Shown: one piece after another, positions 31,193-59,810 of the stretch
Layout: each line of letters opens with the position of its first letter
Position numbering within the stretch: position 1 is the stretch's first letter
Assembly (NCBI GenBank): GCA_018401115.1
Contig: JAGYKX010000007.1
Location: 314,815-378,814, forward strand
Length of the DNA stretch: 64,000 nt
Direction of reading: 5' to 3'
Origin: Flavobacteriaceae bacterium
GTDB taxonomy: Bacteria; Bacteroidota; Bacteroidia; Flavobacteriales; Flavobacteriaceae
The notes under the pieces: generated by a model
Databases searched by the model: none
What the model saw: the letters and a program-made list of their open reading frames with translations, nothing else
Told to the model about the DNA's origin: nothing
Program-made: the position numbers and the translations under genes

Positions 31193-33254
31193 ATGGTTTC
31201 TAAATTACGCTTTGCATTCGCTTTATTTTTTGCTTTTTCAGTCTATAATATTATATACAGCCAAGACCACAGCGAAAAAGCCAAAGACACTACTGCTTTA
31301 AACGAAGTGGTGCTAACTGCCTCATTAATTACAACAAATTTATTAGACGCTCCTACTGCTTCTAGTTTTGTGAATGCCAAAAAAATTCATGAAACGACCC
31401 CCCAACTATCCCTAAAAGAATATCTGGGTCAGGTGCCTGGTTTATTTGCCCAAAACCAATACAACTACAACCAAGACTTGCGAATCTCTATTAGAGGTTT
31501 TGGGGCAAGGGCCTCATTTGGTATAAGGGGTGTGTTTCTAAATATAGACGGTATACCAGAAACCACTCCAGACGGACAAAGCCAATTAGACAATATACCA
31601 ATTGGTATTATATCTAATATTGAAGTGCTCAGAGGGCCTAGCAGTGCGCTATATGGCAACGCCGCTGGTGGAGTAATTTTAATGAGCACCCAGGAAGACT
31701 TGGGAGCAAACACCTTAAAATTTAGGGCCATGGGCGGGGCGTTTGGATTGGCTGCTTCTCAGCTAACGGTTGCTTTAGGAGAGAATAAATTTAAATCTCT
31801 TTGGCATTTTAACCATAGTGTCTCAGAGGGATATAGAGCGCTTGAGTGGATTTAAACAAAGCCAATTAAATGGAACATTTACATATCAATTGGCCAAAAA
31901 TCAATCCTTAAAAGGACAGTTCAATTACACTGACAGCCCCTATGCAAATGACCCTGGTAGTTTAAGCCTAAAACAAGTTACAAACGGGAGAAGGTTGGCA
32001 AGAGAGGCTAATATTGTTTACCAAACAACAGAAAAAATAAATCATTTAAAATTTGGTTTAAGCCACCAATACGCTCCTAATAAGAAGGGTATTGATGCTT
32101 TAAACAATGCCTTTGAAATAAACTCCTATGCCTTTTTTGCCCAAAGAAACTTTCTAGGGCTATTGCCTTTTTTAAATGGTGGCGTCTCTGCATTTAAAAG
32201 AAACTATTACGGACTTGGCTCAAAGGCCGTTTTTAAAGGAGAAAACAAGCGAACAGTTGGTTGTGGGAATAGGTCATGCTTTGCAAAGCGACCTTAGAAG
32301 TAGATTTCAAAATGAAAGAGGTGTTGTTGGTACATTGGTCGGGCAACAAAATGAGGTTTTTCCAACAGTCATGGGTTTATCACTGGTAAAATTCCCTTTC
32401 AAAATTGGATGCTTAGCGCTGCTTTAAGGACAGACCTCATCCATATAGAAATGGACACAAACCAAAAAAGAAATTTTACCGCCTTAAGCCCAACAGCCGC
32501 ATTAGGCAGAAAAATAGGTATTAATCAATATATAAGCTTCTCCTATGCGCAGAGTTTCGAAACCCCTACCCTAAGTGAGTTGAGCAATGCACCAGACGGG
32601 AGCCTGGGTTTTAACGAAACCCTAGATCCAGTAAAATCAAATAATATAGAATTAACCTACAGGGGCAAGCACTTCATAAAAAACGACTACAAATTAAATT
32701 GGGAGATCAGTGGTTTTATAAGTGATTCAAATGGAGAAATTTTGCCTTTTGAGTTGCCTGAATTTCCACAGAGACAATTTTTCAAAAATAGTGGCGAAAC
32801 AAAAAGAAAGGGTGTCGAGGCAATGGTCACATTAATCGGAAATATACTGGAATGGAACAATTCAGCAACCTTTGCAAACTACACCTTTAAAGAAAACACA
32901 GAAATTACTGCACTGTCAGGAAAGAAGATTCCTGGCATTCCAAGCCATCATTTTAATTCACAAATACAGTTAAAATTTCGTAGTCAACTTAATATACGAT
33001 TAGAGTATCAGCATATAGGATCCTTAATGGCCAACAATAACAACAGTGTAAAAGTCGCTCCATATAGCGTATTAAATCTTTCAGGCGTAAAACAACTGCC
33101 TTTAAAAGATGGCGCCCTCAAGCTTTTTGCTGGTATTAACAACCTGACGAATAGTCTTTATTTTGACAATATTAGAATTAATGCTTTTGGAGGAAGATTT
33201 TACGAAGCCGCGCCAACGAGACACCTTTATATGGGAATAGAATTGTCTTTATAA
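31193..33254 (+). pseudogene. TonB-dependent receptor broken into four ORFs
   Basis: ORFs 31193..31855 (plug: DAPTASSFV, RGPSSALYGN), 31818..32297, 32176..32427 and 32409..33254 (C-terminal barrel ending ...HLYMGIELSL) tile one about 700-aa TBDR in three different frames. Confidence 0.8.
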
Positions 33255-34883: not shown

Positions 34884-37397
34884 TTATTCAGAAGGCACCT
34901 CTATATGGTTTCCTAAAAATATAGCATTTAAGAAAAGCCTATTCATTCCGTAATTCACCCCTCTGAAATTAGGGTTGTCTGCAAACATCACCACACGACC
35001 ACTACCTTTAGGGCTCACAATGAGTGAAGCGCTTTTAGGTAAAAAAACACGACTGTTTTTTGGTGAAATATAGCCGTCTAAATGTGGATTGTCTGCATAA
35101 TCTATCACTGTACCATAGGCGCTTTTCGAAGGTGACAGCCAAACCTCATTGTTTTTATACAAAGCAATTCTAGACTGATCGTAACCAAATCCAAGCGGAT
35201 GGGTCAAATCTATATCACCCTTTAAAAATACCCCGCCTAAAGCTTCTCTCCCTATATTTTCTCCAGCGTCTACATAGGGTTTTCTCTGTACTATTTCAGT
35301 GGAGTCTGAGGGGGCCTTAATCAGTTTTTCATTTACAAATTTAGTGTTCACCGCCCACGAAGAACCGCTGCCAATGGTGATTAAAGTGTTTCCTTTAGAC
35401 ACCCAATCATAAAGTTTTTTTGTAAACCGCTCAGACAATGCATACCGGCCAGAGACCATCACTAAAATATTGTAGGCATCTAATGAAACACGGTCTAAAT
35501 TTCTGATAGGTAATTTACTAATAGGCATACCCACGCGAGTGTCCAACAAATGCCAAATCTCTCCTGCTTCATATGAAGAAGTGCCATTCCCAATAATCAT
35601 AGCAGCTTTAGGTACTTGTAGTGGGCGTACATTCCTACTTCCTAAATCTACTCCTGAAAGACTTAAACCAGATTGCACTGCAGACACTGAAACCCCTAAT
35701 TTATTAGGTAAGTCTGCCATAAGGGTAGCTAAACTGTCCTTTGAGATTTTTTGTAATGCCACAGGAATCATCAGGGATCCGTACGAAAAAGACTTTGCGC
35801 CGTCTGAAGTAGACACTTTAAAAGGCTTAAAAGCTGCTGAAAGCACTACGCCATTTTTTTGTAAATGAGCTATGGCTGAAGGTACATTGTAATCTCTAGC
35901 CTCAATAGCATACGCATAGTCTGAAGGGACAAAATCAGATACTTTTACTAAGTCTGCTTCCTTTAATGGGCTGCCCAACTTAGGGAGTTTGGTGAGGGGC
36001 TTATAAGAAATATTAAAAAAATTGGCCACAGACCAAGCGCTTGCGTCGTAATAAACAGAGTCCCTGTATTTATTGTAGGTCTCAAAGAAACTCTGAACCA
36101 TTCGGTATTGCGCCTGAGCGGTAGGCACTACATATTGATCTTTTTCGGTCTCATACACAGAGATCTTATGGGTATTTAATTTCCCAATAAAAGCCTTGGC
36201 TAGGTTTTGATCCGTTTCTTTAAAAGAGTAGCCCTTAATTTTACTAGCTGCTGCATTTGAAAAAGCACTCTTAAAAAAATCCCGCTGATACGCCTGAAGC
36301 ATAGCAGCATTTTCTACTGCTGCTTTCACCGTTGTAATACTAGAAACGTATTGGTTTCTGATTGTAAAAGGAAAGGTAATTTCCCCAAAAGCTGTAGTTT
36401 GTTTTAAACCCCTTGAACTGGCTTGTTCAAACAACAAGGCCAAAGCGCCTTGAAGATCTGGATAGGAAGAGCCGTATCCTGGATATGTGCCGTCAAAAGC
36501 TTCTTTGGTAAAGTACAAAGACCCTATGCTGTCTAGGGCTTTTGAAAAATAACTTCCAAAAAGATCATTTAAGGTGGTATAGTTTTCTTTGGGCATAATG
36601 GGGTCCCAAGAAGCGTTGGGCTTCATGGGCTCAAAAAAATAGGTACTTTGGCTGCCCATTTCGTGAAAATCAGTCACCACATTGGGGTACCATTCATGCG
36701 ACCAGGCCACCTTTCCTTGGCTTTCAGGATTTACGGTTAACAACCAGTCTCGGTTGAGGTCAAACCAGTAATGGTTGGTTCTACCCCCAGGCCAATATTC
36801 ATTGTGCTCTGCATCTTGAGGATCTGCTACCAAGGGACGCCCTTTATAGGTATTGGCCCACTGGGTGTGCCTATCTCTACCATCTGGATTGATCGTTGGA
36901 TCTATAAAAATAACGGCGTTCTCTAGGTATTTTTCTATCTCAGCATTTTTAGAGGCCACAAACGTATAAGCCGCCAAAAGCGCCGCCTCTGAACTGGATG
37001 GTTCGTTTCCGTGTACGTTGTAAGCTAGGTTTATAATCAACGGAAGCGCTTTGTCTTTTGGTGCTTCCCCGCTTTTTACAGAAGCTATATGCGCTGCTTT
37101 AATTTCCGACAATCTAGCGAGGTTTTCAGGGCTACTCACCACTAAAAAAGCCAGTTTTCTCCCTTCGTGTGTTTTTCCGTAGGGCATGATTTGAGCGCGG
37201 TCAGATCCCGCTGCCAATTGTTCTAAATACCCCACGATTAGATCATGACGGCTGTGTTGGCTGCCAATGTCGTATCCTAGAAAAGACGCTGGAGAAGGCA
37301 CCTCCTGACTAAAAGGTGCATATTTTTCATAAAAATAGTCTTGGCCAAAAGCCATACTACTGCAACACAACAGCAGGGTAAATAATCTCAATAACAT
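34884..37397 (-). CDS. Secreted M14-family zinc carboxypeptidase-like protein (large, multi-domain)
   Basis: 837 aa with signal peptide MLLRLFTLLLCCSSMAFGQ and the NVHGNEPSSSEA (HxxE zinc-ligand context) of M14. Confidence 0.75.
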   Translation of the reverse strand: MLLRLFTLLLCCSSMAFGQDYFYEKYAPFSQEVPSPASFLGYDIGSQHSRHDLIVGYLEQLAAGSDRAQIMPYGKTHEGRKLAFLVVSSPENLARLSEIKAAHIASVKSGEAPKDKALPLIINLAYNVHGNEPSSSEAALLAAYTFVASKNAEIEKYLENAVIFIDPTINPDGRDRHTQWANTYKGRPLVADPQDAEHNEYWPGGRTNHYWFDLNRDWLLTVNPESQGKVAWSHEWYPNVVTDFHEMGSQSTYFFEPMKPNASWDPIMPKENYTTLNDLFGSYFSKALDSIGSLYFTKEAFDGTYPGYGSSYPDLQGALALLFEQASSRGLKQTTAFGEITFPFTIRNQYVSSITTVKAAVENAAMLQAYQRDFFKSAFSNAAASKIKGYSFKETDQNLAKAFIGKLNTHKISVYETEKDQYVVPTAQAQYRMVQSFFETYNKYRDSVYYDASAWSVANFFNISYKPLTKLPKLGSPLKEADLVKVSDFVPSDYAYAIEARDYNVPSAIAHLQKNGVVLSAAFKPFKVSTSDGAKSFSYGSLMIPVALQKISKDSLATLMADLPNKLGVSVSAVQSGLSLSGVDLGSRNVRPLQVPKAAMIIGNGTSSYEAGEIWHLLDTRVGMPISKLPIRNLDRVSLDAYNILVMVSGRYALSERFTKKLYDWVSKGNTLITIGSGSSWAVNTKFVNEKLIKAPSDSTEIVQRKPYVDAGENIGREALGGVFLKGDIDLTHPLGFGYDQSRIALYKNNEVWLSPSKSAYGTVIDYADNPHLDGYISPKNSRVFLPKSASLIVSPKGSGRVVMFADNPNFRGVNYGMNRLFLNAIFLGNHIEVPSE

Positions 37398-37489
37398 AAG
37401 AAAGGGTTTAAAGTTTTACCCTTTAAAGATACCAAAGAATTTTTGCTTAATCTCCTTTCAACTGTTATGAAACACGATAGGATAGAAAC

Positions 37490-38206
37490 CTAAAATAAAG
37501 ATCGGCTATCGGTCACTAAATTACTCCCTTTAAAATGGCCCTTGTCAAAATGTAATCTATTTGCTTTTACCGCTATAGGAAAGGGCATTTTACCCTCCGA
37601 TACAAGCTTTAATACTTTGTTGTTTTTCTTAAAAGTATTGAGTTTTCCGTCTGTTTTTTTATCTAACTTTAATATTAGCGAAGGAGATATTTCAATATCT
37701 GTCTCTATGGTAATCACGAGATTCTTAGCCCACAAAACCCCTGAAATTAGTAAAATTTGATCCTTGTTTGCGTGAGAAAACAGGCTGGGATTGGGATGTA
37801 AATAATCTGCCTGATGTAAATAATTTTCCAAACTCCCCATCACCAATTCCTCAGACTCTGACCCTTCATATGAAATGCTTAAAGATTTTCCAGAGGTAAT
37901 CAGGGTTTCCAAAGAGAGGTTTCCAAGCCCAAAAGCACTTAAAAGCGGTTCCAACAAAGACATTCCCATATTAAACATATATTCGTTTTTATACCTAGAA
38001 GACACTTTTAATGCGCTGTTCTCAGATACCTCAAGGGACTTTTTGGATTCAAATGCATGATTTATGTGAGTATAATACAACTCAATAGGGTTAGCGGGAA
38101 CTTTAAGCCACAACTGCAATAATTTATAACTTCTAATTGGCCCGCCAAGCAGGTCATATCCGTGTTCCCTTAGGTTTTTACTCAAATTTGATTGTAACAT
38201 ATTCAT
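37490..38206 (-). CDS. Hypothetical protein resembling bacterial gasdermin (bGSDM)
   Basis: 238 aa, and the gene is visibly more AT-rich than its neighbours. Blocks L-x3-GYDLL..P....LLQL, MGMSLLEPLLSAFGLGNLSLE, SLSISYEGSESEELVMGSLENYLHQAD and PFPIAVKANRLHFDKGHF occur in the order I recall for bGSDM proteins. Not HMM-verified. Confidence 0.35.
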   Translation of the reverse strand: MNMLQSNLSKNLREHGYDLLGGPIRSYKLLQLWLKVPANPIELYYTHINHAFESKKSLEVSENSALKVSSRYKNEYMFNMGMSLLEPLLSAFGLGNLSLETLITSGKSLSISYEGSESEELVMGSLENYLHQADYLHPNPSLFSHANKDQILLISGVLWAKNLVITIETDIEISPSLILKLDKKTDGKLNTFKKNNKVLKLVSEGKMPFPIAVKANRLHFDKGHFKGSNLVTDSRSLF

Positions 38207-38383
38207 TTTTTTAACGCTTTACCGCATTTGATTTAAAGATACCTTAAAATCCTGCTTTTTGTCTTTTTGTGTCATTAATCCGAAATAAATGGTCTTTGGC
38301 CGATGTTTTTTTGCATGCACTAATTCATTATCTTTAGGTACTTAACAATTTCCCTAGGTAGGAAAATCAAAAAAAACCAACTC

Positions 38384-44565: not shown

Positions 44566-44841
44566 TTAGAGTTCTTGAAATTGTTTTAATTCGATTTCCC
44601 GAACCATTTCTTTATTCTTGAGGTTATTTATCTCAATCACTTTTTTGTTCAGTAGAAACCCTACAACAGATACTGAATCAATCAATCTTTTATTCTTCCA
44701 TTTGATTCCTTTAATCTTTCCATCTTGAAGATACTGAAAAATGGTTCTTCTACTTACTCCGAGTTCTTGGGAACAATCATCTACTGATATCCATTTATAA
44801 GTTTCAAAACCTTCTAATTTTTGTTCAAATAGATTCTCCAT
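44566..44841 (-). CDS. Helix-turn-helix DNA-binding protein, excisionase/MerR-like (HTH_17)
   Basis: KWISVDDCSQELGVSRRTIFQYLQDGKIKGIKWKNKRLI fits the Xis-type HTH pattern. Its start shares a TAATG overlap with the upstream gene. Confidence 0.6.
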   Translation of the reverse strand: MENLFEQKLEGFETYKWISVDDCSQELGVSRRTIFQYLQDGKIKGIKWKNKRLIDSVSVVGFLLNKKVIEINNLKNKEMVREIELKQFQEL

Positions 44842-45362
44842 TATAGTAGTATTCCACTTATGTGTTTCACTTCATCTATAACATACTTTTGTTGAGGTGT
44901 AGTTAGTTTTACATAATCGTTCCAAAGGATACCACCATTCTTATCAATGGTTCCAACTAACATTAAATTCTTCCCCGTTGAATCATAGATTTTCATTCCG
45001 TTTGATTCCTTAACCACCCCAATAAGTTTTCGGTTAGAACCATTACCAATCCATCTGAACGGAACAACAGAGTTCATTTCTTTATTGATTGTATCTAATT
45101 TTTGATTTAATCCTAATGAGTAAGAAGGGAGATATTGTTTCCACTCACTATATCTTTCTAATAGTTGGGTAATATCACCATAATTCATTTCGGTTTCTTC
45201 CTTGAGAGTTTTAATCATCTTATCTCGTTCAGAGGAAATCCACCCCCTTTCACACATATGATTTAATACCAATACATCAGTGTATTTCATCAATCCCTTG
45301 ATTCCCGTTTCTTTTAGGGTTTGAACTAACCCATCAATTTCATAATCGTTTATTTCTTCCAT
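44841..45362 (-). CDS. Hypothetical protein
   Basis: 173-aa ORF, translationally coupled to the HTH gene and divergent from hsdM. Confidence 0.55.
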   Translation of the reverse strand: MEEINDYEIDGLVQTLKETGIKGLMKYTDVLVLNHMCERGWISSERDKMIKTLKEETEMNYGDITQLLERYSEWKQYLPSYSLGLNQKLDTINKEMNSVVPFRWIGNGSNRKLIGVVKESNGMKIYDSTGKNLMLVGTIDKNGGILWNDYVKLTTPQQKYVIDEVKHISGILL

Positions 45363-45484
45363 AATACTTTCACAGATAGTGTTGTTGTTTCACACTATTA
45401 CTTATAAGTATTACAAACTCAGAAAAGTGTTTTATCTCTATACTTAAAACATTAACTTTAGGTTTTTAATTTTGAAATTAAACT

Positions 45485-47192
45485 ATGAGTAACCATAACG
45501 AAATATCATCCTTCATCTGGAGTGTCAGTGATGATATTCTGAGAGATGTTTTTAAAAATTATGAATATGGTGATATAATTCTCCCATTCCTTGTTTTAAG
45601 AAGGTTGGATTGTGTTCTTGAACCAAAGAAAAAGAAGTAGTTGAGTTTTACGATACAATCAAGGGAGAATTTGAAGACCCTTCTGAGGTATTGATGGAAC
45701 AAACTAACATGAATTTTACAAATCACTCTAAATTTGATTTAGTAAAACTAATAGAAGACCCTAACAAACTAAAAACGAATATAGATGAGTATATAAGTGG
45801 TTACTCTTCAAATGTTCGTGAAATTCTTTCTTACCATAACCTAACCTCAATTATAAATAAACTTCATAAGAATAATCGGTTATTTAAACTTGTTGAGGTC
45901 TTTACACAAATAGATTTACATCCAAATGTGGTAAATAACCACACAATGGGAAGAATCTTTGAAGAAATTTTGAGAAGGTTCTCAGAGATGAGTAATGAAA
46001 CAAGTGGAGAACATTATACTCCAAGAGATATAGTTAGTTTGTTGGTGTCATTAGTGTTTTCACCTGATAAAGAAAAACTCCAAGATAAAGGGAAGATTAT
46101 TTCGGTTTTTGACCCTTGTTGTGGAACTGGTGGTATGTTAACTGTTGGTAAAGAATGGGTACATGAGAACATCAACGAAAATATTTCTGTAAACCTTTTT
46201 GGACAGGAATTAAACGAAACAACTTACTCAATTTGTAAGTCAGATTTTCTAATTACTGATGAAAATCCAAACAACATTAAGTTAGGTTCTTCTCTTTCTC
46301 AAGATGGATTCTCTGATACAGATAGGAAGTTTGATTACATGATTACTAACCCACCCTTTGGAGTGAGTTGGAAATCTGAAAAATCATTTATTGAAGATGA
46401 ATCTCATAGAGGGGACGATTCAATGTGGGTACACCAAGAGTATCAGATGGTTCATTACTCTTCTTACAACACCTTATTTCCAAAATGGAAACTCAAGGTT
46501 CAAGAATAGGAATTGTATTCAATGGTTCACCTCTCTTTACTGGTGATAGTGGTTCAGGTGAATCTGAAATCCGTAAATGGATAATAGAAAACGATTGGTT
46601 AGAAAGTGTAGTTTCATTACCAGACCAACTATTTTTTAATACAGGTATCTCAACATATATCTGGATAGTAACAAATAAAAAGGAACCTCAACGAAAAGGG
46701 AAAGTTCAACTAATAGATGGTTCTTCATTCTATAAATCAATGAAGAAATCATTGGGTAGTAAACGAAAGTTTATTGATGATTCTCAACGAGAACAACTTA
46801 TTCAAACTTATCAGAACTTTGAAGAAAATGAACACTCAAAGATTTTTGATAATGAATACTTTGGGTATACTAAAATTACCATTGAACAACCAAAAGTTGA
46901 GAATGGTAAGGTAGTAAGAGACAAGAAAGGAAATCCAAAATCAGATTCCAAACTCAGAGATTTTGAAAGAGTTCCTTTATCAGAAGATATTGAAGAGTAT
47001 TTCTCTCGTGAAGTTGAACCACATCTTCCTAACTCATGGATTGATTTTGATAAGAGTAAGGTGGGTTATGAAATCAACTTTACAAAGTATTTCTTCAAGT
47101 ACAAACCTCTTCGTTCATCAGTTGATATCTCCAATGATTTATTAGAATTAAAAAGAGAATCTGAAAACTTACTTAACCTAATAATGGATTAA
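45485..47192 (+). pseudogene. hsdM: Type I restriction-modification methyltransferase subunit, in three frames
   Basis: Pieces 45485..45640 (HsdM_N: FIWSVSDDILRD...ILPFLVLRRLD), 45691..46509 (EHYTPRDIV, DPCCGTGGM, NPPFG) and 46425..47192 (SDGSLLFLQHL). Junctions fit 1-nt deficits in an A-run (near 45630) and a G-run (near 46410). Confidence 0.85.
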
Positions 47193-48442
47193 TGAAGAGA
47201 TATGATTCATATAAAGATTCAGGGTAGAATGGATTGGGGAGATTCCAAGTCATTGGAAGAAAACAAAACATAAATTCAATCTTTCAATTTTAAGTGGTTA
47301 TCCATTTAAGTCTGAGTTATTTGATAAATCAGAGGTTTTCCTTTAATCCGAATACGAGATATTTCATCAGGAAAAATAGAGACTTATTATCAGGGTGAAG
47401 TATTAGATAAATTTGTAGTTAATGAAGGAGACCTACTAATTGGAATGGATGGGGACTTCAATACCCGTTGGTGGAATTCTGAACAAGGACTATTAAATCA
47501 GAGATGTTGTTCCATAATTGAGGTTCAGATGTTCTAAGAAGATATCTACATTATGTTCTCCCGATAGAACTTAATATAATAAACGACCTAACATATTATA
47601 CAACGGTAAAACATCTTTCAGTTGATGACATAAACAATACTGATACGATACTTCCACCCCTCTCAGAACAACAACAAATCGTAACCTTCTTAGATACCAA
47701 AACCTCACTCATTGATTCTTTAATTGAGAAAACCCAACGAAAGATTGAACTACTCAAAGAGAAAAGAACCTCTCTTATCAATGAAGTAGTTACCAAAGGA
47801 TTGAATCCCAATGTGGAGATGAAGGATAGTGGTGTGGAATGGATTGGGGAGATTCCGAGTGATTGGGACACTCCATTTTTTAGTCTTATCTCTAATCTTC
47901 AACAGGGTTTACAAATTCCTTTTGACAATAGATTCTTTGAAAAAGAAGAAGGAATGTTTGAATATATAACTACAAAATCTGTCCACAATACAAATGACCC
48001 AAGACAATATGTATTGAACCCAAAAAAATCAGTTATATGTGGTAAAGATGAAATTTTATATGGTAGAACAGGAAATACAGGTGAGGTAATAACTAATGTT
48101 GAAGGGGTGTTTCATAACAACTTCTTCAAAATAAACTATGATAAAAATAAACTTGTTAAAGAATATCTGATATATCAATTAACTAATTCAAGATTTAGAG
48201 AGACCATATTACTTCTTTCAGGAACTACAACAATTCCAGATTTGAATCACGGAGACTTTAATTCTATGAGGTGTTTAATTCCACCACTCTCTGAACAACA
48301 ACAAATCGTTGAATATTTGGATGAACAAACTCAACTGATTGATAAAACAGTATCTATTGAAGAAAAGAGAATAGAACTACTTAAAGAATATCGTCAATCC
48401 CTTATCTCTGAAGTAGTAACTGGTAAACGAAAAGTAGTTTAA
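47192..48442 (+). pseudogene. hsdS: Type I R-M specificity subunit. The TRD1 half is broken by at least 3 frame breaks; the TRD2 half (47801..48442) is intact.
   Basis: ATG overlaps the hsdM stop (TAATG). The conserved EWIGEIPS.W block occurs twice (near 47230 and 47836), and the conserved LPPLSEQQQIV..L coiled-coil spacers occur twice. Confidence 0.8.
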
Positions 48443-48444
48443 TT

Positions 48445-51321
48445 ATGTATGTACACCCTACCGAATATAGATACCAAAAAGAGATAATAGAATATCTTTC
48501 AACTCATGAGTTTAATGGGTTGAAGTATAATTATCTAAAGGATGATAGTTATGAATACGATAGGTTTAAGTGTATAATACCTTCAGAAACTTTAAAGTTT
48601 ATTGAGAAACACACAATCTGAAACTTATAAAAATATCCTCAAATACAAGGGAGAACCTGAAGGATTTATTTCAAAATTAGTTAACGATAGTGTTTTAAAA
48701 AATGGTTTAATCAAAACTCTTAAAGATGGTGTAGATGATTATGATGTTGGTCATGTTGATTTAATTTATTTTAACCCTGATAGAAGGATATCTCAATCTT
48801 ATTTAGAGAAATACCAAGAGAATAGGTTTGTTGTAATAGATGAATTTAAGTACTCTGTAAAGAACGAAAACAGAATTGATGTTGTTCTTATCATTAATGG
48901 AATTCCAATCCTTACAATGGAGTTAAAGAATCAATTTACTGGTCAATCAGTAAAGGATTCAGATAAACAATATGTTTATGATAGAAAACCTGATGGAGAA
49001 CCTCTTTTAAAATTCAAAAGATGTATTTGGTCATTTTAGTTTAGATAAATCAGAGATTCATTTTACCACAAATCTCAGAGGAGAAAAAACCAAGTTCTTT
49101 CCTTTCAATAAAGAAATGGATGTCAATAAAGATGGTTACAAGGTATCTTTCCTTTGGGAAGAGATTTTTAACCCTGTCTCTTTACTTGATATTCTTGAAA
49201 AGTTCGTTGTTCAAGTTATAGAAGTAAGTAAGGAGTGGAATGATAAAACCCAAAAGTTGAGAAAGAAAGAATGAAGTACTCATTTTTCCAAGATATCATC
49301 AATTAGAGGTAATTAGAAACCTTAGAAGTACTGTAAAATCAAATGGTATTGGTGGTAATTATTTAGTTCAACACACCACAGGTTCTGGTAAATCATATTC
49401 TATCGGATGGTTATCTCATAACCTCAATACTCTATTTGATAAAGATGATAATAAGATGTTTGATTCAATCATTGTTATCACTGATAGAAGAGTATTAGAT
49501 TCTCAACTTCAAAAGACTATAAAAGATTTAGAGGGAGTTGAAGGAGTAGTAAAACAAATAGATGAGGACTCTAAACAACTAAAAGGTTATTTAGAAAGTG
49601 GTGGTAGTATTATCATTACTACTATTCAAAAATTCTCAGTTGTTGTAAAATCCATTCAAGAACTCTCAGGAAAGTAATTTTGGTGTAATAATTGATGAGG
49701 TCCACTCTTCACAAACCGGTAAAAGTGGTTTGAATCTTAGAAAGGTTTTATCTCTCAATGAAGATGATGAGGTCACCAATACAGAACTACAAGATTACAC
49801 AAACTCAGTTGTTAAATTTCTAAGTGAAGAACAAAGAAGTAGAAAGAAACCACCTAACATTTCTTTCTTTGGATTTACAGGTACTCCAAAACAGAAACCC
49901 TTGAAATCTTTGGTACTGAATCAATAGTAGATGGAGAAACTAAAAAATTCCCTTTCACTCTTATTCGATGAAACAATCAATTAAAGAAGGTTTCACTTTA
50001 GATGTATTAGAAAACTTTACTTCTGTAAAAGATGGTTTAAACTCAAAATGAAGGGGGATGATAAAGAACTCCCTGAATCTAAAGTAAAACACGAATTGGT
50101 GAATTGGGTTGATTCATCTCCTGAGATGATATCTGAGAAAGTGAGAATCATTCTGAACCATTTAACTCAAAAACCTTTAATACTATTCCTAAAAAACTTT
50201 CAAGTGGGAAAATCCAAAACAGTGGTAAAGGGATGATTGTTTGTAGTTCTCAATATGATGTGGTACAATACTTCTTTGAATTGACCAAACAACTAAAAGA
50301 AAAAGGATGGTACGATAAATGTAAACCTTTATGTGGTTTTAGTGGTAAAATCGATTTTCAAGGTGAAAAATTCACTGAACAAGACCTCAACGATATAAGT
50401 GGTCACAATAGAAGAGAAAGTATCCCTGATGGGTTTAAAAACCCCGTCAATAGAATACTGATTGTTTGTAGTAAGTTTCAAACTGGTTTTGATGAACCTC
50501 TTCTTCATTCCATGTTTGTAGATAAGAAATTAAATGGTGTTCAATGTGTTCAAACTTTATCAAGATTGAATAGAACCACTTCTGGTAAAGAAGATACATT
50601 CGTTCTTGATTTTGTGAATAGACCCGAAGATGTTCAAAATTCATTTCAAGAATTCTATAAAACAAAAATTCTCTCTGGTGAAAGTGACCCTAACGAGTTG
50701 TATGGAATACTAAAAGATATTGAAGGTTATAACCTTTATAGACCATCTCAAATTGATGATTGGTTAGAAATATACTTTAGAAAGAACCGTAGTGATAAAG
50801 ATTTACAACCTTTAGTAGATACCATATACAATCAATGGATAGAATTACCTGATGATGATAGGGTAAGGTTTCGTTCAAAAATTGGTTCCTTTCATAAGAT
50901 GTATGAGTATATCACTCAAATCATTGATTTTAAGAATCAACCTAAATTGGAAGGTTACAACCTTTTCTTTTCATTACTTCATAAATTTCTAACTGTATCA
51001 AAACCTATTGTTGAATTAAATCTATCTGACTCTGTTTATTTAGATTCATATAAGTTTGATATTCAAGGTAAAAACAATTTGTTTTTAGATGATGTAGATA
51101 CACCCGTTGACCCTAAATCATATGATTCTGAAGGAATGTTAATGGAAGAGGAGACGGATTTACTTTCAAATATTATTAAAGGAATGAATGAAGTTCTTGG
51201 AGAGGGTTTACCTGAACATTTAAGAAAACCTCTCGAGAATCTTACCAAGAAAATTGAAGGTCACGAAGAGTTTGATACAACCTTAAAAATAACACAGAAT
51301 CTAACTCAAGAGATTGGTTAG
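48445..51321 (+). pseudogene. hsdR: Type I restriction endonuclease R subunit, fragmented into at least 8 pieces
   Basis: Fragments carry NRIDVVLIINGIPILTMELK (nuclease), QHTTGSGKS (motif I), IIDEVHSSQ (DEAH-like), FGFTGTP (motif III) and QTGFDEP...TLSRLNR (motifs V/VI), spread over several frames. Confidence 0.85.
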
Positions 51322-51481
51322 ATAAAATATATCTTGATATCAATAAAGAGAATTTTAAAACGATTTAGAAGGTTATAAGTTTTAAAAGATGAAAATATTA
51401 AGGATATAATTATTCAAGGTATTATTAATTCTAAAAAGGAAGTTCTTCTAGAGTTAAATAATTTTAAAAGAAAGTTATTAT

Positions 51482-52435
51482 ATGGATTTGTTAACAGATG
51501 TAGAAGATCTTTATGGAAACCCTATTTTACTTGGGAATGGTTTCAGTATTTTAAACAACAATAATTTTTCTTATAAAAACTTAATTAAAGAAATCATACA
51601 AAATAGTGAGGTTGACGTAAAAATATTTTAAATAAATTTAATGAGAAGAATATAGAAGAAGTCTTATACAAGATTCAGTCAAGTATTGAAATATGTAAAA
51701 TATTAGATATACCCAGTAAAAAAATAATTAAAACAGAAACTAAACTAATTAGATCTTTTATAGATATAATTAGTAAACTCCAACCCTCTTCAGACTCATA
51801 TTTTGAACCCTACAGTTACCACTATGGTAATCAACTTAAAAATTTGGTAGTATTTTTACCACTAATTACGATTTGAATATCTATTTTTAGTTTTAAAATA
51901 TTTTTCAAGAAATAACGGTCTTTTTACCCACTCTGATAACTTTTCGGGGTCAAACCAATATCTTACGTTTAATAATGAAAGTAACTCTAGTTATGAATCT
52001 CATATTTATTATTTACACGGAAATATATTGTTGTTTGGTAATAATCTTGAAATTTTTAAAGTAAAAAAACAGACGAGAACAGTAGTATTATTGATAAAAT
52101 AAAAGAAAACATAAATAATGGTAAACTTCCAATTATAGTTACTGATGGAAGTCCTGAATATAAATTGAACAAAATAAATGGAAATAAATATTTGAGGTTT
52201 TGTTTTGAAGAGTTTAAAAATCACAAGAGTGATTCCCTAGTTATATATGGACATTCATTAAGTGATTTAGATAAACATCTAATAGAATGTATTAACTCAA
52301 ATAAAAATTATAAAAAATTTATTTTGGACTATTTAAACCAACTGAAAATAAAATTAACCTTCAAAAGTCTAAGTTTAATGAAGAATTAGATGTCAAATTT
52401 TTGATTCTGAAATGTTATTTAACCCTGACATCTAA
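51482..52435 (+). pseudogene. DUF4917 family protein gene, broken by at least 5 frame breaks or stops
   Basis: MDLLTDVEDLYGNPILLGNGFS..., ...IFTTNYDL..., ...YYLHGNILLF..., ...LVIYGHSLSDLDKHL..., ...VKF(F)DSEMLF are DUF4917-like landmarks in shifting frames. Confidence 0.6.
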
Positions 52436-52440
52436 TAATT

Positions 52441-52600
52441 TTCACAATCTTTCTACTTAAATCTCGTTCCTTTACACTTATAGTTCAACACATGATATCG
52501 ATATAACAATGATACTGATACCAGATTAACTGAAATTAATATCCTTAGTTACAAGAAACCTTCAAGTTAATCTTCCGATTTGAACCTCTTAAAATTTTCG
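52441..52600. repeat. Intergenic repeat copy A (cassette-boundary element)
   Basis: Alignable by eye with copies B and C. It shares acaatctttct..cttaaatctc..tacacttatagtt with them, and the 15-nt block aaattaatatcctta (52533..52547) is identical in B. Confidence 0.7.
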
Positions 52601-52655
52601 AAGAGAGGGATTGTTATGTATTAAGAAGAGATTTGTGTTTCTTATTCACATTGAA

Positions 52656-52901
52656 TCAGTTGAATTTTCCTAAGTATTTGGTATAAACCAACTGACAGAC
52701 TTTATCCATTGATTTGAATACACTCATATCAAAATCAGAACTCTTGGTGATACTTGTAAGGGTAACTACCGAGTTATAGAGAACCTCATTATCCTCACGA
52801 GAGATTCGTTCGATAAAGTTGATATGATTACTTCCTTTAGGTGATTCAGAAACGATTACTTCTTCTGATTTTGAATCTATGGAAAAGAGAAAATTACTCA
52901 T
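52656..52901 (-). CDS. Small acidic hypothetical protein (candidate inhibitor or immunity partner of the upstream HNH protein)
   Basis: 81-aa ORF, 8 nt downstream of the HNH gene on the same strand, rich in D/E/S. Confidence 0.5.
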   Translation of the reverse strand: MSNFLFSIDSKSEEVIVSESPKGSNHINFIERISREDNEVLYNSVVTLTSITKSSDFDMSVFKSMDKVCQLVYTKYLGKFN

Positions 52902-52909
52902 AGGTTAGG

Positions 52910-53332
52910 TTATTGATGGAGGTGACATCTTCCGTTAGTATTTTTAGTTCGATTCTTACACCTAAGTCCTTTTTGAGTGGTTCCTGAACATTGAGTTGAG
53001 GTTACTGATTTAGAAGTTTTGGATTTAGTGGTTTCACCTTGACAACAGTTTGTTCCTACTATATTATTGTGAATCTTACAAACACAACTATTGGATTTAC
53101 TCCGATTACATCGTTGACAGAGAAGTTGGATATTCGATGGGTCATTCTTCCCTCCACACGAAAAGGGAGTGATGTGGTCATACTCTAAGTTATCGGTTCT
53201 TCCACAACATTGACACGAACCACCATCACGAGTAAAGACAATCTTTTTGGTAGTGGTGGAGATATTTCTACTTTGAGAGTAACCTGAGAAGGTGATTAGA
53301 ATCAGGGATATGAGAAGGAGTAATCTTTTCAA
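52910..53332 (-). CDS. HNH endonuclease domain protein with an N-terminal signal peptide and a Cys-rich C-terminal tail
   Basis: TTG start. (M)KRLLLLISLILITFSGYSQS signal-like N-terminus; HNH core CQCCG...EYDHITPFSCGG...NIQLLCQRCNRSK; tail GLRCKNRTKNTNGRCHLHQ. Confidence 0.65.
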   Translation of the reverse strand: MKRLLLLISLILITFSGYSQSRNISTTTKKIVFTRDGGSCQCCGRTDNLEYDHITPFSCGGKNDPSNIQLLCQRCNRSKSNSCVCKIHNNIVGTNCCQGETTKSKTSKSVTSTQCSGTTQKGLRCKNRTKNTNGRCHLHQ

Positions 53333-53370
53333 AACCAGTAATTTTTAAAAGATTTTACTAAATATAACTA

Positions 53371-53520
53371 AATTCTCTTCACCTCCCATTACTTCACACT
53401 TATAGTTAAATTAAAGGTATCGATATGACAATGTATTCGATACAGGTTTATCAAAAATTAATATCCTTACATACAAAAACATATTGGATGTTCTTTGGAT
53501 TTGAAAACTGTAAAGACTGT
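53371..53520. repeat. Intergenic repeat copy B (cassette-boundary element)
   Basis: Shares ttcacacttatagtt, tatcgatat, acaatg and aaattaatatcctta (53455..53469) with copy A. Contains an internal 7-bp inverted repeat, gtatcga (53417..) / tcgatac (53437..). Confidence 0.7.
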
Positions 53521-53868
53521 TCTGGTGTACAAAAAAAGACAATTCAAGAAGAAGGATTTCACACTAGAAAAGGACATCAACAAATTAAAAACATTCTATA
53601 CCCAAGAAGGAGAAAGTAATTGAGATGAAAATATATCTTACAAAATTTAATAACAGTTAGTGTTCTAAATTATCTTTATGAAATTAGTCCTTGATATACT
53701 AAAAAAGAGAAGTGTTTTTAGAAAATTCAATTATAAGTTTTCTAATAACAATGGAGATTTTGATTTAGGTTTGGAACCAGATAATCCATTAGTTCCCATA
53801 GACCCTAAAAATGGACCTAAGATTTTATTTAACAAAAAAGAACTAAGAGAGTAATCTTCTATTCTAAT

Positions 53869-55013
53869 TCAATCCCTATTGTAATCAATTAATCTAAATT
53901 GTTCTTTAGAAGTAACTCTTGGAAATTTTGATTTATAATCTTTCCACTTCCTTAGACATGTTTCATAATCATCATTATCTTCAATTCCACATAAATCACC
54001 TGAGTCACCATTATAATCCCAATCTCCCCAATCTTTAGTTTCAAAGAATTTAGGTATATCCTCTAACTCATATAAAAACCCTTCTTCAATTCCAGTTAAA
54101 TAAAAGTCATCTATTAGAACCCGATTATCTTGTATTTCAAACCATTCTCCATCTTCATATTCTTCCTCTATTTTATCTAGTTTGTGATATTGACCAAAAA
54201 CAATTATTCCACTACCGTCATTAAGTTTAAATTCCCCCCTATATCTTACTTCATGTATGATTCGGATTCTTATATCACCATGTTTTAAAACATCTTCTTT
54301 TATTATTTTTCCATCCTTATCCCATTCTGTTATTGATTCACAAATATCATTATTAAAAAACTCTTCCTTTTTTATTTTACCACTTTGAAAGTAGGTGAAC
54401 CATTTCCCGGATTTACTTCCCTTATGAAACTCTCCTTCACTTTTTAGTTGATAGTTTTTAAAATATCTTTTGTAAGAACCATGTTTAAAAAATCCAAACT
54501 GTCCACTTTTTAGATTTGACTCTAATTTTAAATTACCATTTTTAAAATATTCTTTTCTAACACCATATCTTTCATTGGTCTGAGTATCTATTTTGGTCTG
54601 ATTTTCCTCTAATCTTAAAACACCATTTTTATTCCATATTTTTTGAGATTGAGTAAAATGTTTATCGAAGATTTCTTCTTTTTTTATAGTACCACTTTGA
54701 AAGTAGGTGAACCATTTCCCATTTTTTTTGTAGTTGTCAATGTATTTACCTTCGAACTTTAAATTATTCCCTGGATAAAATTCTTTTTGGGATATTTTCT
54801 TATGATTTTCGAATATATTCTCTCTTTTATATCACCATTCTCATAATACAATCTCCACAAACCTTCTTGTTTATCATTTTGAAACTCTCCTTCATACATT
54901 AATTCCCCCGTTTCATAATATAATTTTTGAAGTCCGTGGTATAAACCATTTAATGTGGGAACGGTTGATTTTAATTTTCCATTTGGGTAGTAATCTTCCT
55001 TTATATCATCCAT
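53869..55013 (-). pseudogene. YwqK/MORN-repeat (antitoxin/immunity-like) protein fused to a C-terminal domain paralogous to 55024..55476; one frame break
   Basis: ORF 54759..55013 (YYPNGKLKS..YYETGELMYEGEF..DKQEGLWRLYYENGDIK) continues in the -1 frame as a 320-codon open frame (54831..53872). That frame has no start codon, so it is absent from the ORF track. One more A in the run at 54825..54828 restores ...GDIKRENIFENHKK.... Confidence 0.7.
53896..54231. repeat. Paralogous DNA duplication, copy 1 (pairs with 55042..55378)
   Basis: Long identical stretches, e.g. tatttcaaaccattctccatcttcatattcttcctctattttatctagtttgtgatattgaccaaaaacaattatt, are present in both copies. Confidence 0.85.
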
Positions 55014-55023
55014 GATACTACAA

Positions 55024-55476
55024 TTAATATTTTACTATTTCAAATTGTTCTTTAGAAGTAACTCTTGGAAATTTTGATTTATAATCATTCCATTTTTTTA
55101 GACATGTTTCATAATCATCTTCATCTTTAATTCCACACCAATTATCGGAGTCACCATTAAATTCCCTATCACCCCAACCTTCAACTTTAAAAAACTTAGG
55201 TATATCATCTAAATCAAATAAAAAACCTTTTTCATAATCTGTTAAATAAAACTCATCAATTTCTACTCGATTATCCTCTATTTCAAACCATTCTCCATCT
55301 TCATATTCTTCCTCTATTTTATCTAGTTTGTGATATTGACCAAAAACAATTATTTCATTCCCATCATTAAGTTTAAAATGTAGATTTCCACTTGATTTCA
55401 CTTCATGTTTAAGTTTTATTTTTACTTCACCATTTTTATGAAGAAAATTTGGTTTTTGTTTGTTGATATAATCCAT
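55024..55476 (-). CDS. Hypothetical protein, stand-alone paralog of the C-terminal domain of the YwqK-fusion gene (immunity-protein-like)
   Basis: Start trimmed to ATG 55476 (MDYINKQKPNF...). ...FKLNDGNEIIVFGQYHKLDKIEEEYEDGEWFEIEDNRV... is nearly identical to the neighbour. Confidence 0.6.
   Translation of the reverse strand: MDYINKQKPNFLHKNGEVKIKLKHEVKSSGNLHFKLNDGNEIIVFGQYHKLDKIEEEYEDGEWFEIEDNRVEIDEFYLTDYEKGFLFDLDDIPKFFKVEGWGDREFNGDSDNWCGIKDEDDYETCLKKWNDYKSKFPRVTSKEQFEIVKY
55042..55378. repeat. Paralogous DNA duplication, copy 2
   Basis: See copy 1. Confidence 0.85.
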
Positions 55477-56229
55477 TATTAAATATTTTTTCGTTAATGA
55501 TTCTCCCCATATGTTTTTTATCCTCAGTTGATACCGAACCAAAAGGAAGGTTTTTAGGTTCACCGTAAACTATTCTTGTTTCAAAATCACCTATTGTAAC
55601 TTTAAATAAATCTAACTTAAATGGTTTCCTTGGTTTACCTTCTTTAGTTTTTTCAATTACATGAAGTGTTTCAACATGTGTGGGGTCTAATAATTCCAAG
55701 TATCTTTTCCTAGTGGACAGAATAATTAAATTGGGTTTAACTTCTTGAACTAATCTTTTCCAAAGTTTGAATCCATTTAATCTTAGAAGTTCTTGTTCAT
55801 CAGATTTTAATCTACTCCAAGTTGGATTTGTGGATAAAGGAGAACCAATATCTGTATGGAGGACTTTATTGAAATTATTGTTTGGATAAAAACTACAATT
55901 TAATCCATTAAGTAAAGGTTCATACCCTGTAGAAAACCACTTTTTATAAGGTTCATTTTTAAAATAATCACATAACGATTTTTCAAGTGAAAGAGGGGAG
56001 TTTCTGTACTGTGGAAACCTAAAAAACGAATAGTTATCTAATTGATTAGATTGAAATTCAATGTTTGATGGATTAAGACCTACCGTTATAACTTTCTTTT
56101 TTTGATTAACGAATGATTCAATATCTCCAAAAAGAGTATTGGTAAACTCTTCCCTATAACATAGGGTAAATGTTTTTTATCGTTAAATTCATCAAGTAAT
56201 TCGTTTAAAAGAGACTCTGATAATATCAT
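55436..56229 (-). pseudogene. Hypothetical protein of about 264 aa, split by one frame break; weak resemblance to the uracil-DNA-glycosylase-like fold
   Basis: ATG 56229 (MILSESLLNELLDEFNDKK) runs into a stop. The -1 frame continues ...EEFTNTLFGDIESFVNQKKKVITVGLNPS... to the listed ORF 55436..55699. One extra A in the run near 56172..56177 restores the frame. VGLNPS and a late LPFGSVS loosely recall UDG-superfamily motifs. Confidence 0.4.
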
Positions 56230-56256
56230 TAGTTATGATTTAAGGTTAATTAAAAA

Positions 56257-56619
56257 TTATACTAAATACATGTAAAATCCTCTTATAGGATTTTCATATA
56301 AATCGTTAGTTATTTTGTTCTTTACCCCATTTTCATTATTAATTAAAGACCACTTATACTTTTTATTTTCAAGAAACTCTTCTACCCCCTCTTTAGTAGT
56401 GTCACTATTTATTTTATACTCTTTACTACCAATTTCAACTCTTATTCTTGTAGTATTTCGATTGTATTTATTTAAATCTCCTATTGTTTCTTTTTTAGTC
56501 AATTTCATCCAACAATCCAATAAATCATATAGTGTTTCTTTATTGTTAATAGAAACGGTTTCTATATAGTTTAAATCACTTGATAAATAGTTTCTCACTC
56601 TCTCTAGTTTTTCTTTCAT
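56257..56619 (-). CDS. Hypothetical protein
   Basis: 120-aa ORF, the first gene after repeat copy C. Confidence 0.5.
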   Translation of the reverse strand: MKEKLERVRNYLSSDLNYIETVSINNKETLYDLLDCWMKLTKKETIGDLNKYNRNTTRIRVEIGSKEYKINSDTTKEGVEEFLENKKYKWSLINNENGVKNKITNDLYENPIRGFYMYLV

Positions 56620-56756
56620 AATAATTTGTATTTAACAGGTTTGTTAATGTATTATCTAAAGGTCTCCGTATTTTTTTGTAAATGGATAATCTATTAATTT
56701 CCCTTTAGGAATATGACTATTATATAATTAATACTTAGAAAGTTAAGAATTTTAAA

Positions 56757-56865
56757 ACACAATCTTTCTTCTTATATCTCATTCCTTCACACTAATAATT
56801 CAAAACATAGGGGTAGGTATTCAAATTTATCTGAGTCAGGTTGTAAATAAATAATATTTCTCACT
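56757..56865. repeat. Intergenic repeat copy C (cassette-boundary element)
   Basis: acacaatctttcttcttatatctcattccttcacactaataattcaaaaca aligns with the first part of copy A. The second part (gagtcaggttgtaaataaataatatttctcac) aligns loosely with B (gatacaggtttatcaaaaattaatatccttac). Confidence 0.6.
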
Positions 56866-56887
56866 TCCGAATAACCTATTGGGTTGT

Positions 56888-57493
56888 TTATGAAACCTTT
56901 CTTTTAGTTTTTAGGTACTCTGAGTGAAGGAGTTCTTTGTTTCCGTTATCACACTTTTCAAACCAAGTTGAAATCCAATCCCCACCTCTTTTTTTGATGA
57001 AGAAATACTCTAAATATTCTTTATGTTCTTTGAATCTGTGATTGAGTTCCTTTTCATCGTAACCAATTCCTTCGTTGTTTGTAGATATCATATCAGTATC
57101 TGAAAACATCTCTCTGATTATTGGGTTATCCATTCTGAATGAAAGTGTGTAGTCATGACCAGACTTTGAAATATCTATAAGAACTACTGGTATAAGGTTC
57201 TTCATTTCTTTACTATCCTTATCCTTGTTTGATGGATGTAAATGAGAGTTGAACCCACTATTTGTGAGTCTATAAAAATCATTTGAGTCATTGATATTAT
57301 CAAAAAGTTCACCATTGACATCTCCTTTTACAATTCTACGAGTAACATCACTTGGAGGTATAACACCCCATTTAAAAATAATACAGTCAGGATAACTATT
57401 ATCATTTTCCCATTGGTCTTCACATGTGTATAGACCTACAATTTTAAACCCATATCTTTTTTCTACTTCTTTGATGTAATTACTTTTATTCAT
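56888..57493 (-). CDS. Hypothetical protein (gene 5 of a five-gene operon)
   Basis: 201-aa ORF with an 8-nt overlap with the upstream gene. Confidence 0.55.
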   Translation of the reverse strand: MNKSNYIKEVEKRYGFKIVGLYTCEDQWENDNSYPDCIIFKWGVIPPSDVTRRIVKGDVNGELFDNINDSNDFYRLTNSGFNSHLHPSNKDKDSKEMKNLIPVVLIDISKSGHDYTLSFRMDNPIIREMFSDTDMISTNNEGIGYDEKELNHRFKEHKEYLEYFFIKKRGGDWISTWFEKCDNGNKELLHSEYLKTKRKVS

Positions 57494-57680
57494 TTTGTAG
57501 TTTTTTAATTAATTCTTCTAAATATTCCTCATCTGTAAAAACCTTAAAAGGTATTGTGATAGATTCAAAAATTGATTCCACCACTATGGATGGAATAATA
57601 ATAAACAGTTGATGTATCATCATTGGTATTATTAACATCTTCAATTTTTGTTTGTGTTTTTCTAATTCATTTTCATTCAT
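57486..57680 (-). CDS. Small hypothetical protein with one hydrophobic segment (gene 4)
   Basis: 64 aa with MLIIPMMIHQLFIIIPSIVV flanked by charged helices. Confidence 0.45.
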   Translation of the reverse strand: MNENELEKHKQKLKMLIIPMMIHQLFIIIPSIVVESIFESITIPFKVFTDEEYLEELIKKLQNE

Positions 57681-57684
57681 TTTT

Positions 57685-58622: not shown

Positions 58623-58623
58623 C

Positions 58624-58995: not shown

Positions 58996-59099
58996 CTCCC
59001 AGTCTGAAGATATATTCTCACCATAATAAAGGTTGTTAAATCTCTTTTTCTATATAATTTCTTACTTGTTTTTCTTTTTGTTTTACTTCTAACTCTTTC

Positions 59100-59312: not shown

Positions 59313-59361
59313 CTGTGTAAATCTATTATCATTTCATGTATTCAATCTTTTTAAATGTTTG

Positions 59362-59398: not shown

Positions 59399-59429
59399 TA
59401 CTAATTTAATGTTGAGGTCTAATTCAACC

Positions 59430-59789: not shown

Positions 59790-59810
59790 ATTTCTAATTT
59801 TTAAATTGTT

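Follow-up and report, generated by a model that had tools for sequence, protein, structure and literature searches.

We describe here a gene in a 64,000-nt stretch of DNA from a Flavobacteriaceae bacterium (contig JAGYKX010000007.1), a stretch referred to below as the window. The gene lies on the minus strand and encodes a 238-aa homologue of the bacterial gasdermins (bGSDMs). The rule among characterised bGSDMs is that a dedicated protease removes an inhibitory C-terminal peptide of 17-67 aa (PMC13475620), that an N-terminal palmitoyl group aids insertion into the membrane, and that removal of the peptide kills the cell. Sequence and structural model indicate that the window protein keeps the pore-forming core of these proteins and then stops, only about seven residues beyond the last core strand, and that it belongs to a family of similarly short proteins found across Bacteroidota. 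The features of the locus on which the analysis is centred are the following:

37490..38206, minus strand: coding sequence of the gasdermin, 238 aa, taken from the list of open reading frames (ORFs), with an ATG start and a TAG stop at 37490-37492
37844..37990, minus strand: first proto-finger region, residues 73-121, with model helices at 78-91 and 99-102 and beta-amphipathic segments at 78-82 and 99-102
37598..37723, minus strand: second proto-finger region, residues 162-203, with beta-amphipathic segments at 164-174 and 188-192 and a model helix at 175-184
37514..37582, minus strand: last core beta-hairpin, residues 209-231 (FPIAVKANRLHF - DKG - HFKGSNLV), with model strands E209-221 and E224-231
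37493..37513, minus strand: C-terminal tail, residues 232-238 (TDSRSLF), with the motif [TS]-D-x-[RN]-x-hydrophobic-F at the carboxyl end
38232..38243, minus strand: promoter-like box GGTATCTTTAAA, 26 nt upstream of the gasdermin ATG, resembling the Bacteroidetes -7 element
34884-37397, minus strand: M14 zinc-carboxypeptidase-like gene with a Pfam M14 domain, immediately downstream of the gasdermin

The identity of the protein as a bGSDM homologue is secure, because two curated hidden Markov models (HMMs), the fold predicted by AlphaFold2 and a profile-profile comparison agree. The PADLOC bGSDM model (PDLC02986) matched with E = 1.7e-21, residues 14-232 of the protein corresponding to profile positions 12-229 of 257, and the NCBIfam equivalog model NF051890 (prok_gasdermin) scored 108.4 bits, the curated cutoff being 100. 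PF26164 is precomputed in the protein database on every homologue; a profile scan of the query protein with the local Pfam copy gave no match, and neither did a direct phmmer search of the query against the Protein Data Bank (PDB). The family profile reached the Vitiosangium bGSDM by sequence alone (E = 2e-7; PDB entries 7n51 and 8sl0), and hhalign paired the window family with the Vitiosangium group at a probability of 96.8 over 208 columns, setting residues 8-218 of the window protein against Vitiosangium 8-220. For the structural comparison, an AlphaFold2 model was built from a 29-sequence family alignment, with a mean predicted local distance difference test (pLDDT) score of 85 and a predicted template modelling (pTM) score of 0.81. 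When this model was compared with the PDB by Foldseek, the top six matches were to 7n51, 7n50 and 7n52, all inactive-state bGSDMs (E = 2e-12 to 1e-9), with template modelling (TM) scores of 0.73, 0.66 and 0.61-0.68, respectively, and bGSDM pore-state structures (TM 0.45), Trichoplax gasdermin and mammalian GSDMA3, B and D ranked lower. An earlier note on this DNA, made from the sequence alone, had suspected a bGSDM on the strength of four sequence blocks and had named a bGSDM profile search and an AlphaFold and Foldseek comparison as ways to check it. The four blocks are all present in the 238-aa translation in the order it gave, and both checks bore the assignment out, with significant PADLOC and NCBIfam matches and with bGSDM crystal structures as the best structural matches.

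Taken together, alignment and model indicate that the whole pore-forming core has been kept, including the twisted sheet and the four proto-finger segments. The first proto-finger region carries the FNxG...GLG motif, common to classical bGSDMs, and the segments of the second have their Vitiosangium counterparts at residues 165-179 and 189-195. All four beta-amphipathic segments occupy equivalent positions in the window family and in Vitiosangium, and hhalign runs unbroken across them, this being a test at the sequence level. The same comparison sets window residue 218 opposite Vitiosangium 220, in the last hairpin, where F209 and I211 correspond to L211 and F213 of Vitiosangium, residues that line the palmitoyl pocket (PMC10153256). 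With the classical bGSDMs of Vitiosangium (7N51), Bradyrhizobium (7N50) and Runella (7N52) (Johnson et al. 2022) the window protein shares the superfamily HMM and the inactive fold, together with the motifs GY[DN]..R.P and F.xG...G.G and the hairpin strand (FPIAVKA vs FGFKC).

The difference from the classical proteins begins where the core ends. The short tail reported in the earlier note was confirmed, but not its length of 11 residues (SNLVTDSRSLF, after FDKGHFKG), as SNLVT sits in the last core strand (E224-231) and the true tail amounts to 6-7 residues. About seven residues follow the last core strand in the window protein vs 35 in the Vitiosangium bGSDM, whose control AlphaFold2 model (pLDDT 59 from a 9-sequence alignment, used only for the secondary-structure register) has strands E199-223 and E226-231 and then those 35 residues. 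At the same point the PADLOC bGSDM profile has 28 positions unmatched where the window protein has six residues left. With ~7 residues past the last core strand, the window protein lacks an inhibitory peptide of 17-67 aa, and no exposed cleavage loop precedes its C-terminal end. Classical bGSDMs carry such a loop, of ~12 aa, in front of the peptide, and truncation of their peptide results in growth arrest (preprint 10.1101/2021.06.07.447441). Toxic constructs without the C-terminal domain (deltaCTD) comprise residues 1-237 of the 266 of Vitiosangium, 1-247 of the 268 of Runella and 1-246 of the Nostoc protein (PMC10153256). By the hhalign register and the model strands, the window protein ends within ~3 residues of the end of an activated classical bGSDM, its residue 238 corresponding roughly to Vitiosangium 238-240.

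Engineered deltaCTD bGSDMs (Vitiosangium 1-237 and Runella 1-247; pore-state structures 8SL0 and 9A84) are the known forms that the window protein resembles in both length, which is nearly the same, and end point. They are toxic and palmitoylated, whereas the natural protein of the window is kept under strong purifying selection in many genomes and must, because of that maintenance, be tolerated. The window model, moreover, resembles the inactive fold (TM 0.73) and not the pore fold of the deltaCTD structures (TM 0.45).

The short form is common to a large set of proteins. A word-indexed search returned 135 homologues, nearly all of 233-242 aa, from Flavobacterium, Polaribacter, Psychroflexus, Aquimarina, Bacteroidales, Chitinophagaceae, Pedobacter and others, some of them already auto-named 'gasdermin' by NCBI or UniRef. 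No fewer than 164 proteins from across Bacteroidota, which fall into 65 clusters when grouped at 50% identity, share the short form and are treated here as the family; gasdermin loci numbered 114 among 185,579 species-representative genomes. An exhaustive HMM search of 1.84 billion representatives gave a sharply bimodal result. The short mode consisted of 65 representatives at E < 1e-30, of ~233 aa and aligned to the last residue, whereas classical bGSDMs were reached only at E = 1e-13 to 1e-8, had 251-284 aa and ran on for 20-45 residues past the point where the short family stops. That end point is shared by a few proteins of 237-244 aa that are more divergent. In a neighbour-joining tree, midpoint-rooted and built with no outgroup, all tail-less forms lay on one side of a single deep split, a placement that is suggestive only.

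Within the family, the C-terminal end is nearly fixed. The last residue is Phe in 154 of 164 members, Asp stands at position -6 in 151, and the distance from the FPxAVK anchor to the C-terminus is exactly 30 residues in 135, as against mostly 47-66 in classical bGSDMs; D233 and F238 of the window protein are invariant in family alignment A1. A Cys among the first eight residues was found in 0/164 family members vs 19/44 classical bGSDMs. Cysteine is missing altogether from 134 of the 164, the window protein among them, so that N-terminal palmitoylation of the latter is impossible. The gene is under strong purifying selection. The ratio of nonsynonymous to synonymous substitution rates (dN/dS) was 0.02-0.06 in 10 of 11 unsaturated pairs, the remaining pair giving 0.145; it was 0.02-0.04 against close relatives (94-98% identity) and 0.03-0.06 in most other lineages.

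Two observations at the margins of the family should be mentioned. Three distant relatives, P0240 (737 aa), P0268 (743 aa) and P0263 (595 aa), have an N-terminal gasdermin domain followed by a C-terminal extension of 350-500 aa and may be gasdermin-protease or gasdermin-sensor fusions. A Chitinophagaceae metagenome-assembled genome, CANHSD01, carries two tail-less paralogues (loci L060 and L070) of 66% identity on different contigs, and in Chitinophagaceae loci (L061, L071, L072, L074 and L079, listed with L060 and L070) the gasdermin adjoins the gene of the catalase-peroxidase KatG. The paralogues and the KatG adjacency could be a clue, to paralogue pairing or to a redox link, or could reflect mere synteny or a mixed bin.

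We compared the family with the bGSDMs described so far. In the founding table of 50 bGSDMs (Table S1 of Johnson et al. 2022) the complete unfused entries have 249-318 aa, the exceptions being one incomplete entry of 195 aa and one 482-aa protease fusion, and a ~233-aa form is not among the 50. The seven Bacteroidetes entries have 266-281 aa, each with a CHAT or caspase neighbour. An adjacent protease is present in 43 of the 50 cases, and the seven entries that lack one have 262-318 aa. No description of a tail-less or protease-independent bacterial gasdermin was found in the literature searched. Unlike the classical bGSDMs, the window protein has no inhibitory peptide, no cleavage loop, no N-terminal palmitoyl Cys and no adjacent caspase, CHAT, trypsin, subtilase or U49 protease, and the context of its gene seems to be mostly of the housekeeping and not of the defence-island kind. 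The GasderMIN systems of PADLOC and DefenseFinder, which include a four-gene operon of Lysobacter with CARD and NLR-like components, have an effector that matches the same PADLOC bGSDM model; their definition requires a protease with or without an NLR-like ATPase, and neither being found here, the locus would not be called as a system. The family is an undescribed class within the known bGSDM superfamily, one that departs from the protease-controlled systems in three of their defining features.

To look for partners, genes were called in 79 gasdermin loci and the neighbours within three genes on either side were clustered. No neighbour, be it a protease or another partner, was conserved family-wide, and Pfam searches of the recurrent neighbours found no partner. 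PADLOC scans of the 255 neighbour clusters, each covering its 25 best families, gave nothing beyond isolated defence matches, with no gasdermin-type protease among them; on all 66 ORFs of the window, again over the 25 best families, they gave no gasdermin-type protease, only parts of a type I restriction-modification (RM) system and a few weak matches. In the window itself, no caspase/C14, CHAT, trypsin-like, subtilase or U49 protease lies within three genes of the gasdermin by Pfam or PADLOC. The earlier note was right to report that no caspase-like, trypsin-like or subtilisin-like protease is adjacent, although it overlooked the M14 peptidase gene next door. Homologues of the gasdermin were not found on IMG/VR contigs, in 50,697 phage records or in 72,556 plasmid records. 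The context is stable within lineages. In the clade of the window, which comprises eight loci (the window and seven others, at 66-98% identity), a divergent BNR/sortilin gene lies upstream and an M14-like gene downstream in all eight. Flavobacterium loci have DUF3754, with or without DUF4494, upstream of the gasdermin and an Mpo1-like gene downstream, and the neighbours in other lineages are different again. The genes around the window gasdermin are housekeeping genes: TonB receptor, GFO/IDH oxidoreductase, M14, BNR/sortilin, Exo_endo_phos and fasciclin.

The sequence upstream suggests that the gene is transcribed by itself, with a promoter-like box of its own. The core TATCTTTAA of this box is kept upstream of the gasdermin in 8/8 members of the window clade, including those at 66-70% identity. 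Of the complete 12-mer GGTATCTTTAAA the window has just one other copy (37422-37433, minus strand), which lies 25 nt upstream of the M14 ATG. The 12-mer is probably the local -7 promoter element, and the gasdermin and M14 genes might be co-regulated. The divergently oriented BNR gene has a similar box, TATCTTTAG (38329-38337, plus strand), in front of it. The stretch that separates its promoter from that of the gasdermin contains, at 38289-38305, a palindrome-like sequence that reads CATCGGCCAAAGACCAT on the minus strand; relatives have GGCCAAAGGCC at this position, and locus L004 has another palindrome, CTGTTAACAG. This element could be a shared operator or a hairpin. In Flavobacterium (loci L035-L057), a canonical Bacteroidetes -7 box, TAnnTTTG, was seen ~100-130 nt upstream of the gasdermin ATG, which implies a long 5' leader, and this leader contains blocks conserved among related species, where a regulatory RNA element might lie.

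Base composition says little in favour of a foreign origin. The gasdermin gene is more AT-rich than its neighbours, as the earlier note had remarked, with a GC content of 0.359 vs 0.419 and 0.433. The inference it drew from this, horizontal insertion, does not hold: GC content at third codon positions (GC3) is 0.366, about the same as that of the neighbours (0.378 and 0.360) and above the window mean, and the position of the gene is kept in relatives down to 66% protein identity. Because GC3 matches that of the neighbours, the low overall GC reflects a protein rich in Lys, Asn, Ser and Leu and not foreign DNA, and GC3 parity together with the conserved synteny argues against a recent insertion. 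The same note had called the gene a singleton, which is apt for a lone gene with its own promoter-like box but not for its product, a protein with more than 160 homologues. The BNR and M14 genes are conserved, and the slot that they enclose is variable. In five marine flavobacterial loci (L098, L100, L101, L107 and L108) this slot codes for a PhzF-like protein of 261 aa and a membrane protein of 115 aa in place of the gasdermin. Because this slot varies between genera, the acquisition of the gasdermin is old and lineage-specific, or else the gene has been differentially retained; in neither case is it recent.

With no inhibitory peptide of at least 17 aa and none of the described partner proteases adjacent, the regulation of the window protein must differ from that of the described systems, a conclusion that the earlier note had already reached. 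The reading that we favour, with a probability of roughly 0.5, is that the protein is a self-contained pore-forming-domain gasdermin, controlled without a dedicated protease that removes a long inhibitory peptide. The terminal hexapeptide would hold the soluble inactive fold, which is the conformation predicted by AlphaFold, and the invariant C-terminal Phe would plug, as a minimal latch, the hydrophobic groove in which the palmitoyl chain of classical bGSDMs is lodged. In those proteins the palmitoyl tunnel is capped by one residue of the C-terminal peptide, F253 in Bradyrhizobium and L260 in Vitiosangium (preprint 10.1101/2021.06.07.447441). A MAFFT alignment set the last nine residues of the family ([LIV][VI][TS]D.[RN], a hydrophobic residue, F) against the terminal anchor of the classical C-terminal domain (CTD; ...LLDEGG-LL... 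in Vitiosangium), and in this weak alignment the terminal hydrophobic-Phe pair stood opposite Vitiosangium L259-L260. The missing palmitoyl anchor would reduce spontaneous insertion into the membrane. Activation could then come from displacement or trimming of the latch, from a change in the membrane or its lipids, or from induced expression, and would end in membrane permeabilisation and in cell death or lysis. The outcome might be abortive phage defence or another kind of regulated lysis; the housekeeping context and the very low dN/dS speak rather against a typical defence-island gene.

Eukaryotic gasdermins offer what may be, by analogy, the closest functional precedent for such control. 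TrichoGSDM (8JYV) and fungal RCD-1 (8JYY) likewise consist of the pore-forming domain alone, with neither a repressor domain nor a dedicated protease. TrichoGSDM is held by a disulfide-linked dimer, and RCD-1 needs two antagonistic alleles (PMC13475620, PMC13305819). Neither arrangement can be carried over as it is, the first being inapplicable to a protein without Cys and the second to loci that normally hold one gasdermin. The likeness of fold is also distant, with a TM of 0.45 to 8jyv and a match to 8jyy that is not significant.

Several points weigh against control of this kind. Pore formation and toxicity of the ~233-aa family are themselves predictions from sequence and model. The latch role of the Phe is deduced from its conservation and the weak alignment, and residues 231-238 have a mean pLDDT of 68. 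In the bGSDM literature, removal of the classical CTD suffices for toxicity and palmitoylation promotes pore formation; a gasdermin without CTD and palmitoyl could be constitutively toxic or nearly inert. A window of 64 kb leaves room for an unlinked protease elsewhere in the genome. Finally, a non-lethal role would agree with the housekeeping context and the very low dN/dS no less well than suicide does.

What gives the family its interest is a large natural group of proteins without peptide, Cys or protease and yet with a dN/dS of ~0.03, which raises the questions of how a gasdermin of 'activated' length stays harmless and of what switches it on. We advance, tentatively and with less confidence than the reading above, the proposal that the members of the ~233-aa Bacteroidota clade are the first gasdermins of prokaryotes whose control does not involve proteolysis. 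These would be proteins of activated length and without an anchor, restrained by a six-residue Phe plug or through expression or the membrane, and encoded by a quasi-core, vertically inherited gene for regulated lysis that need not be phage defence. If this were true, cleavage-independent control, so far confined to Trichoplax and Neurospora, would extend to bacteria, the family would provide a minimal system for the transition from the inactive to the pore state, and defence-system finders that require a protease would be missing a whole branch of gasdermins.

Among the alternatives, the one that survives best, although we think it somewhat unlikely, is that the proteins of the family have taken on a new, non-lethal or physiological task at the membrane (such as a regulated conduit, membrane remodelling, or programmed lysis of a subpopulation that releases public goods) and do not serve anti-phage suicide. 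This alternative draws on the housekeeping context with its genus-stable synteny (DUF3754, DUF4494, gasdermin and Mpo1-like in Flavobacterium; BNR/sortilin, gasdermin and M14 in the window clade), on dN/dS values of 0.02-0.06 that are typical of core genes, on the lack of a consistent defence-island association over the 255 neighbour clusters, and on the lack of homologues in the phage, plasmid and IMG/VR records searched. However, no specific alternative function is positively supported and all characterised gasdermins permeabilise membranes, the spread of the gene is patchy and accessory-like (114 loci in 185,579 species genomes), and a degraded type I RM system is found in a low-GC island of the window that begins 6.6 kb from the gasdermin.

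It is decidedly unlikely, in our view, that the protein works like a classical gasdermin and is activated by proteolysis, with the 6-7-residue tail as the inhibitory element and an endo- or carboxypeptidase encoded elsewhere in the genome removing it. Seven of the 50 founding bGSDMs are also without an adjacent protease, and what was surveyed of the genome here is 64 kb. The tail is rigidly conserved up to its invariant terminal Phe, and a C-terminal Phe is the kind of end recognised by PDZ-proteases and A-type carboxypeptidases. Set against this, the window protein presents no exposed cleavage loop, all seven protease-less founding bGSDMs keep full-length tails (262-318 aa), and no protease family recurs within three genes of the gasdermin over the 79 loci.

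The adjacent M14 carboxypeptidase-like protein might be considered the activator, trimming the C-terminal Phe, but this is highly improbable. Its gene lies directly downstream on the same strand in 8/8 loci of the window clade, the protein combines the M14 domain with HxxE...H zinc ligands (by inspection), the 12-mer GGTATCTTTAAA precedes both genes and the would-be substrate ends in Phe. On the other hand, the M14 protein has, by inspection, a Sec-type signal peptide (MLLRLFTLLLCCSSMAFG|QD), which the gasdermin lacks, and the gene has its own conserved promoter region. Nor do the two genes travel together: M14 is absent from 72 of the 79 gasdermin loci, the gasdermin is absent from 66/66 informative loci of M14 orthologues in other marine flavobacteria, and in other genera unrelated genes occupy the BNR-M14 slot. 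The signal peptide, the lack of co-occurrence and the independent promoter led us to rule out M14 as the gasdermin activator.

A truncated pseudogene or annotation artefact, with the 3' end lost or the tail restored by stop readthrough or frameshift, can be dismissed in spite of 33 stop-free in-frame codons after the TAG in the window and the fragmentation of several other window genes, as the family uses three stop codons (TAA 47, TAG 18 and TGA 14 across 79 loci) with a median in-frame extension of 7 codons, the end point is fixed in at least 135 proteins and dN/dS is 0.02-0.06. The 33 open codons, which run into the M14 start region (37397-37492) and are found in the window only, were judged a chance, one-off occurrence, because the closest relatives (94-98% identity) stop again 4 codons past the gasdermin stop. 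A separately encoded tail peptide downstream was also ruled out, the 92-nt gap to M14 being filled by the conserved promoter region of that gene.

Farther from the gasdermin, beginning 6.6 kb away, positions 44800-64000 form a low-GC3 island (0.11-0.29 vs ~0.35 elsewhere in the window), which resembles a decayed mobile or defence island and contains:

45691-46506 and 46425-47189: split hsdM
47801-48439: hsdS
48602-49036 and 50233-51318: hsdR pieces
52910-53329: HNH endonuclease
60285-60914: resolvase/invertase

Fragmentation was also seen in the TonB-dependent receptor, which is spread over three ORFs (Plug, 31193-31852; an unassigned middle piece, 31818-32294; beta-barrel, 32409-33251). The split receptor and the split RM genes suggest either real pseudogenes or frameshift errors of the assembly. 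The sole Rfam match at the gathering threshold in the window is a tRNA gene on the minus strand, at 3917-3990.

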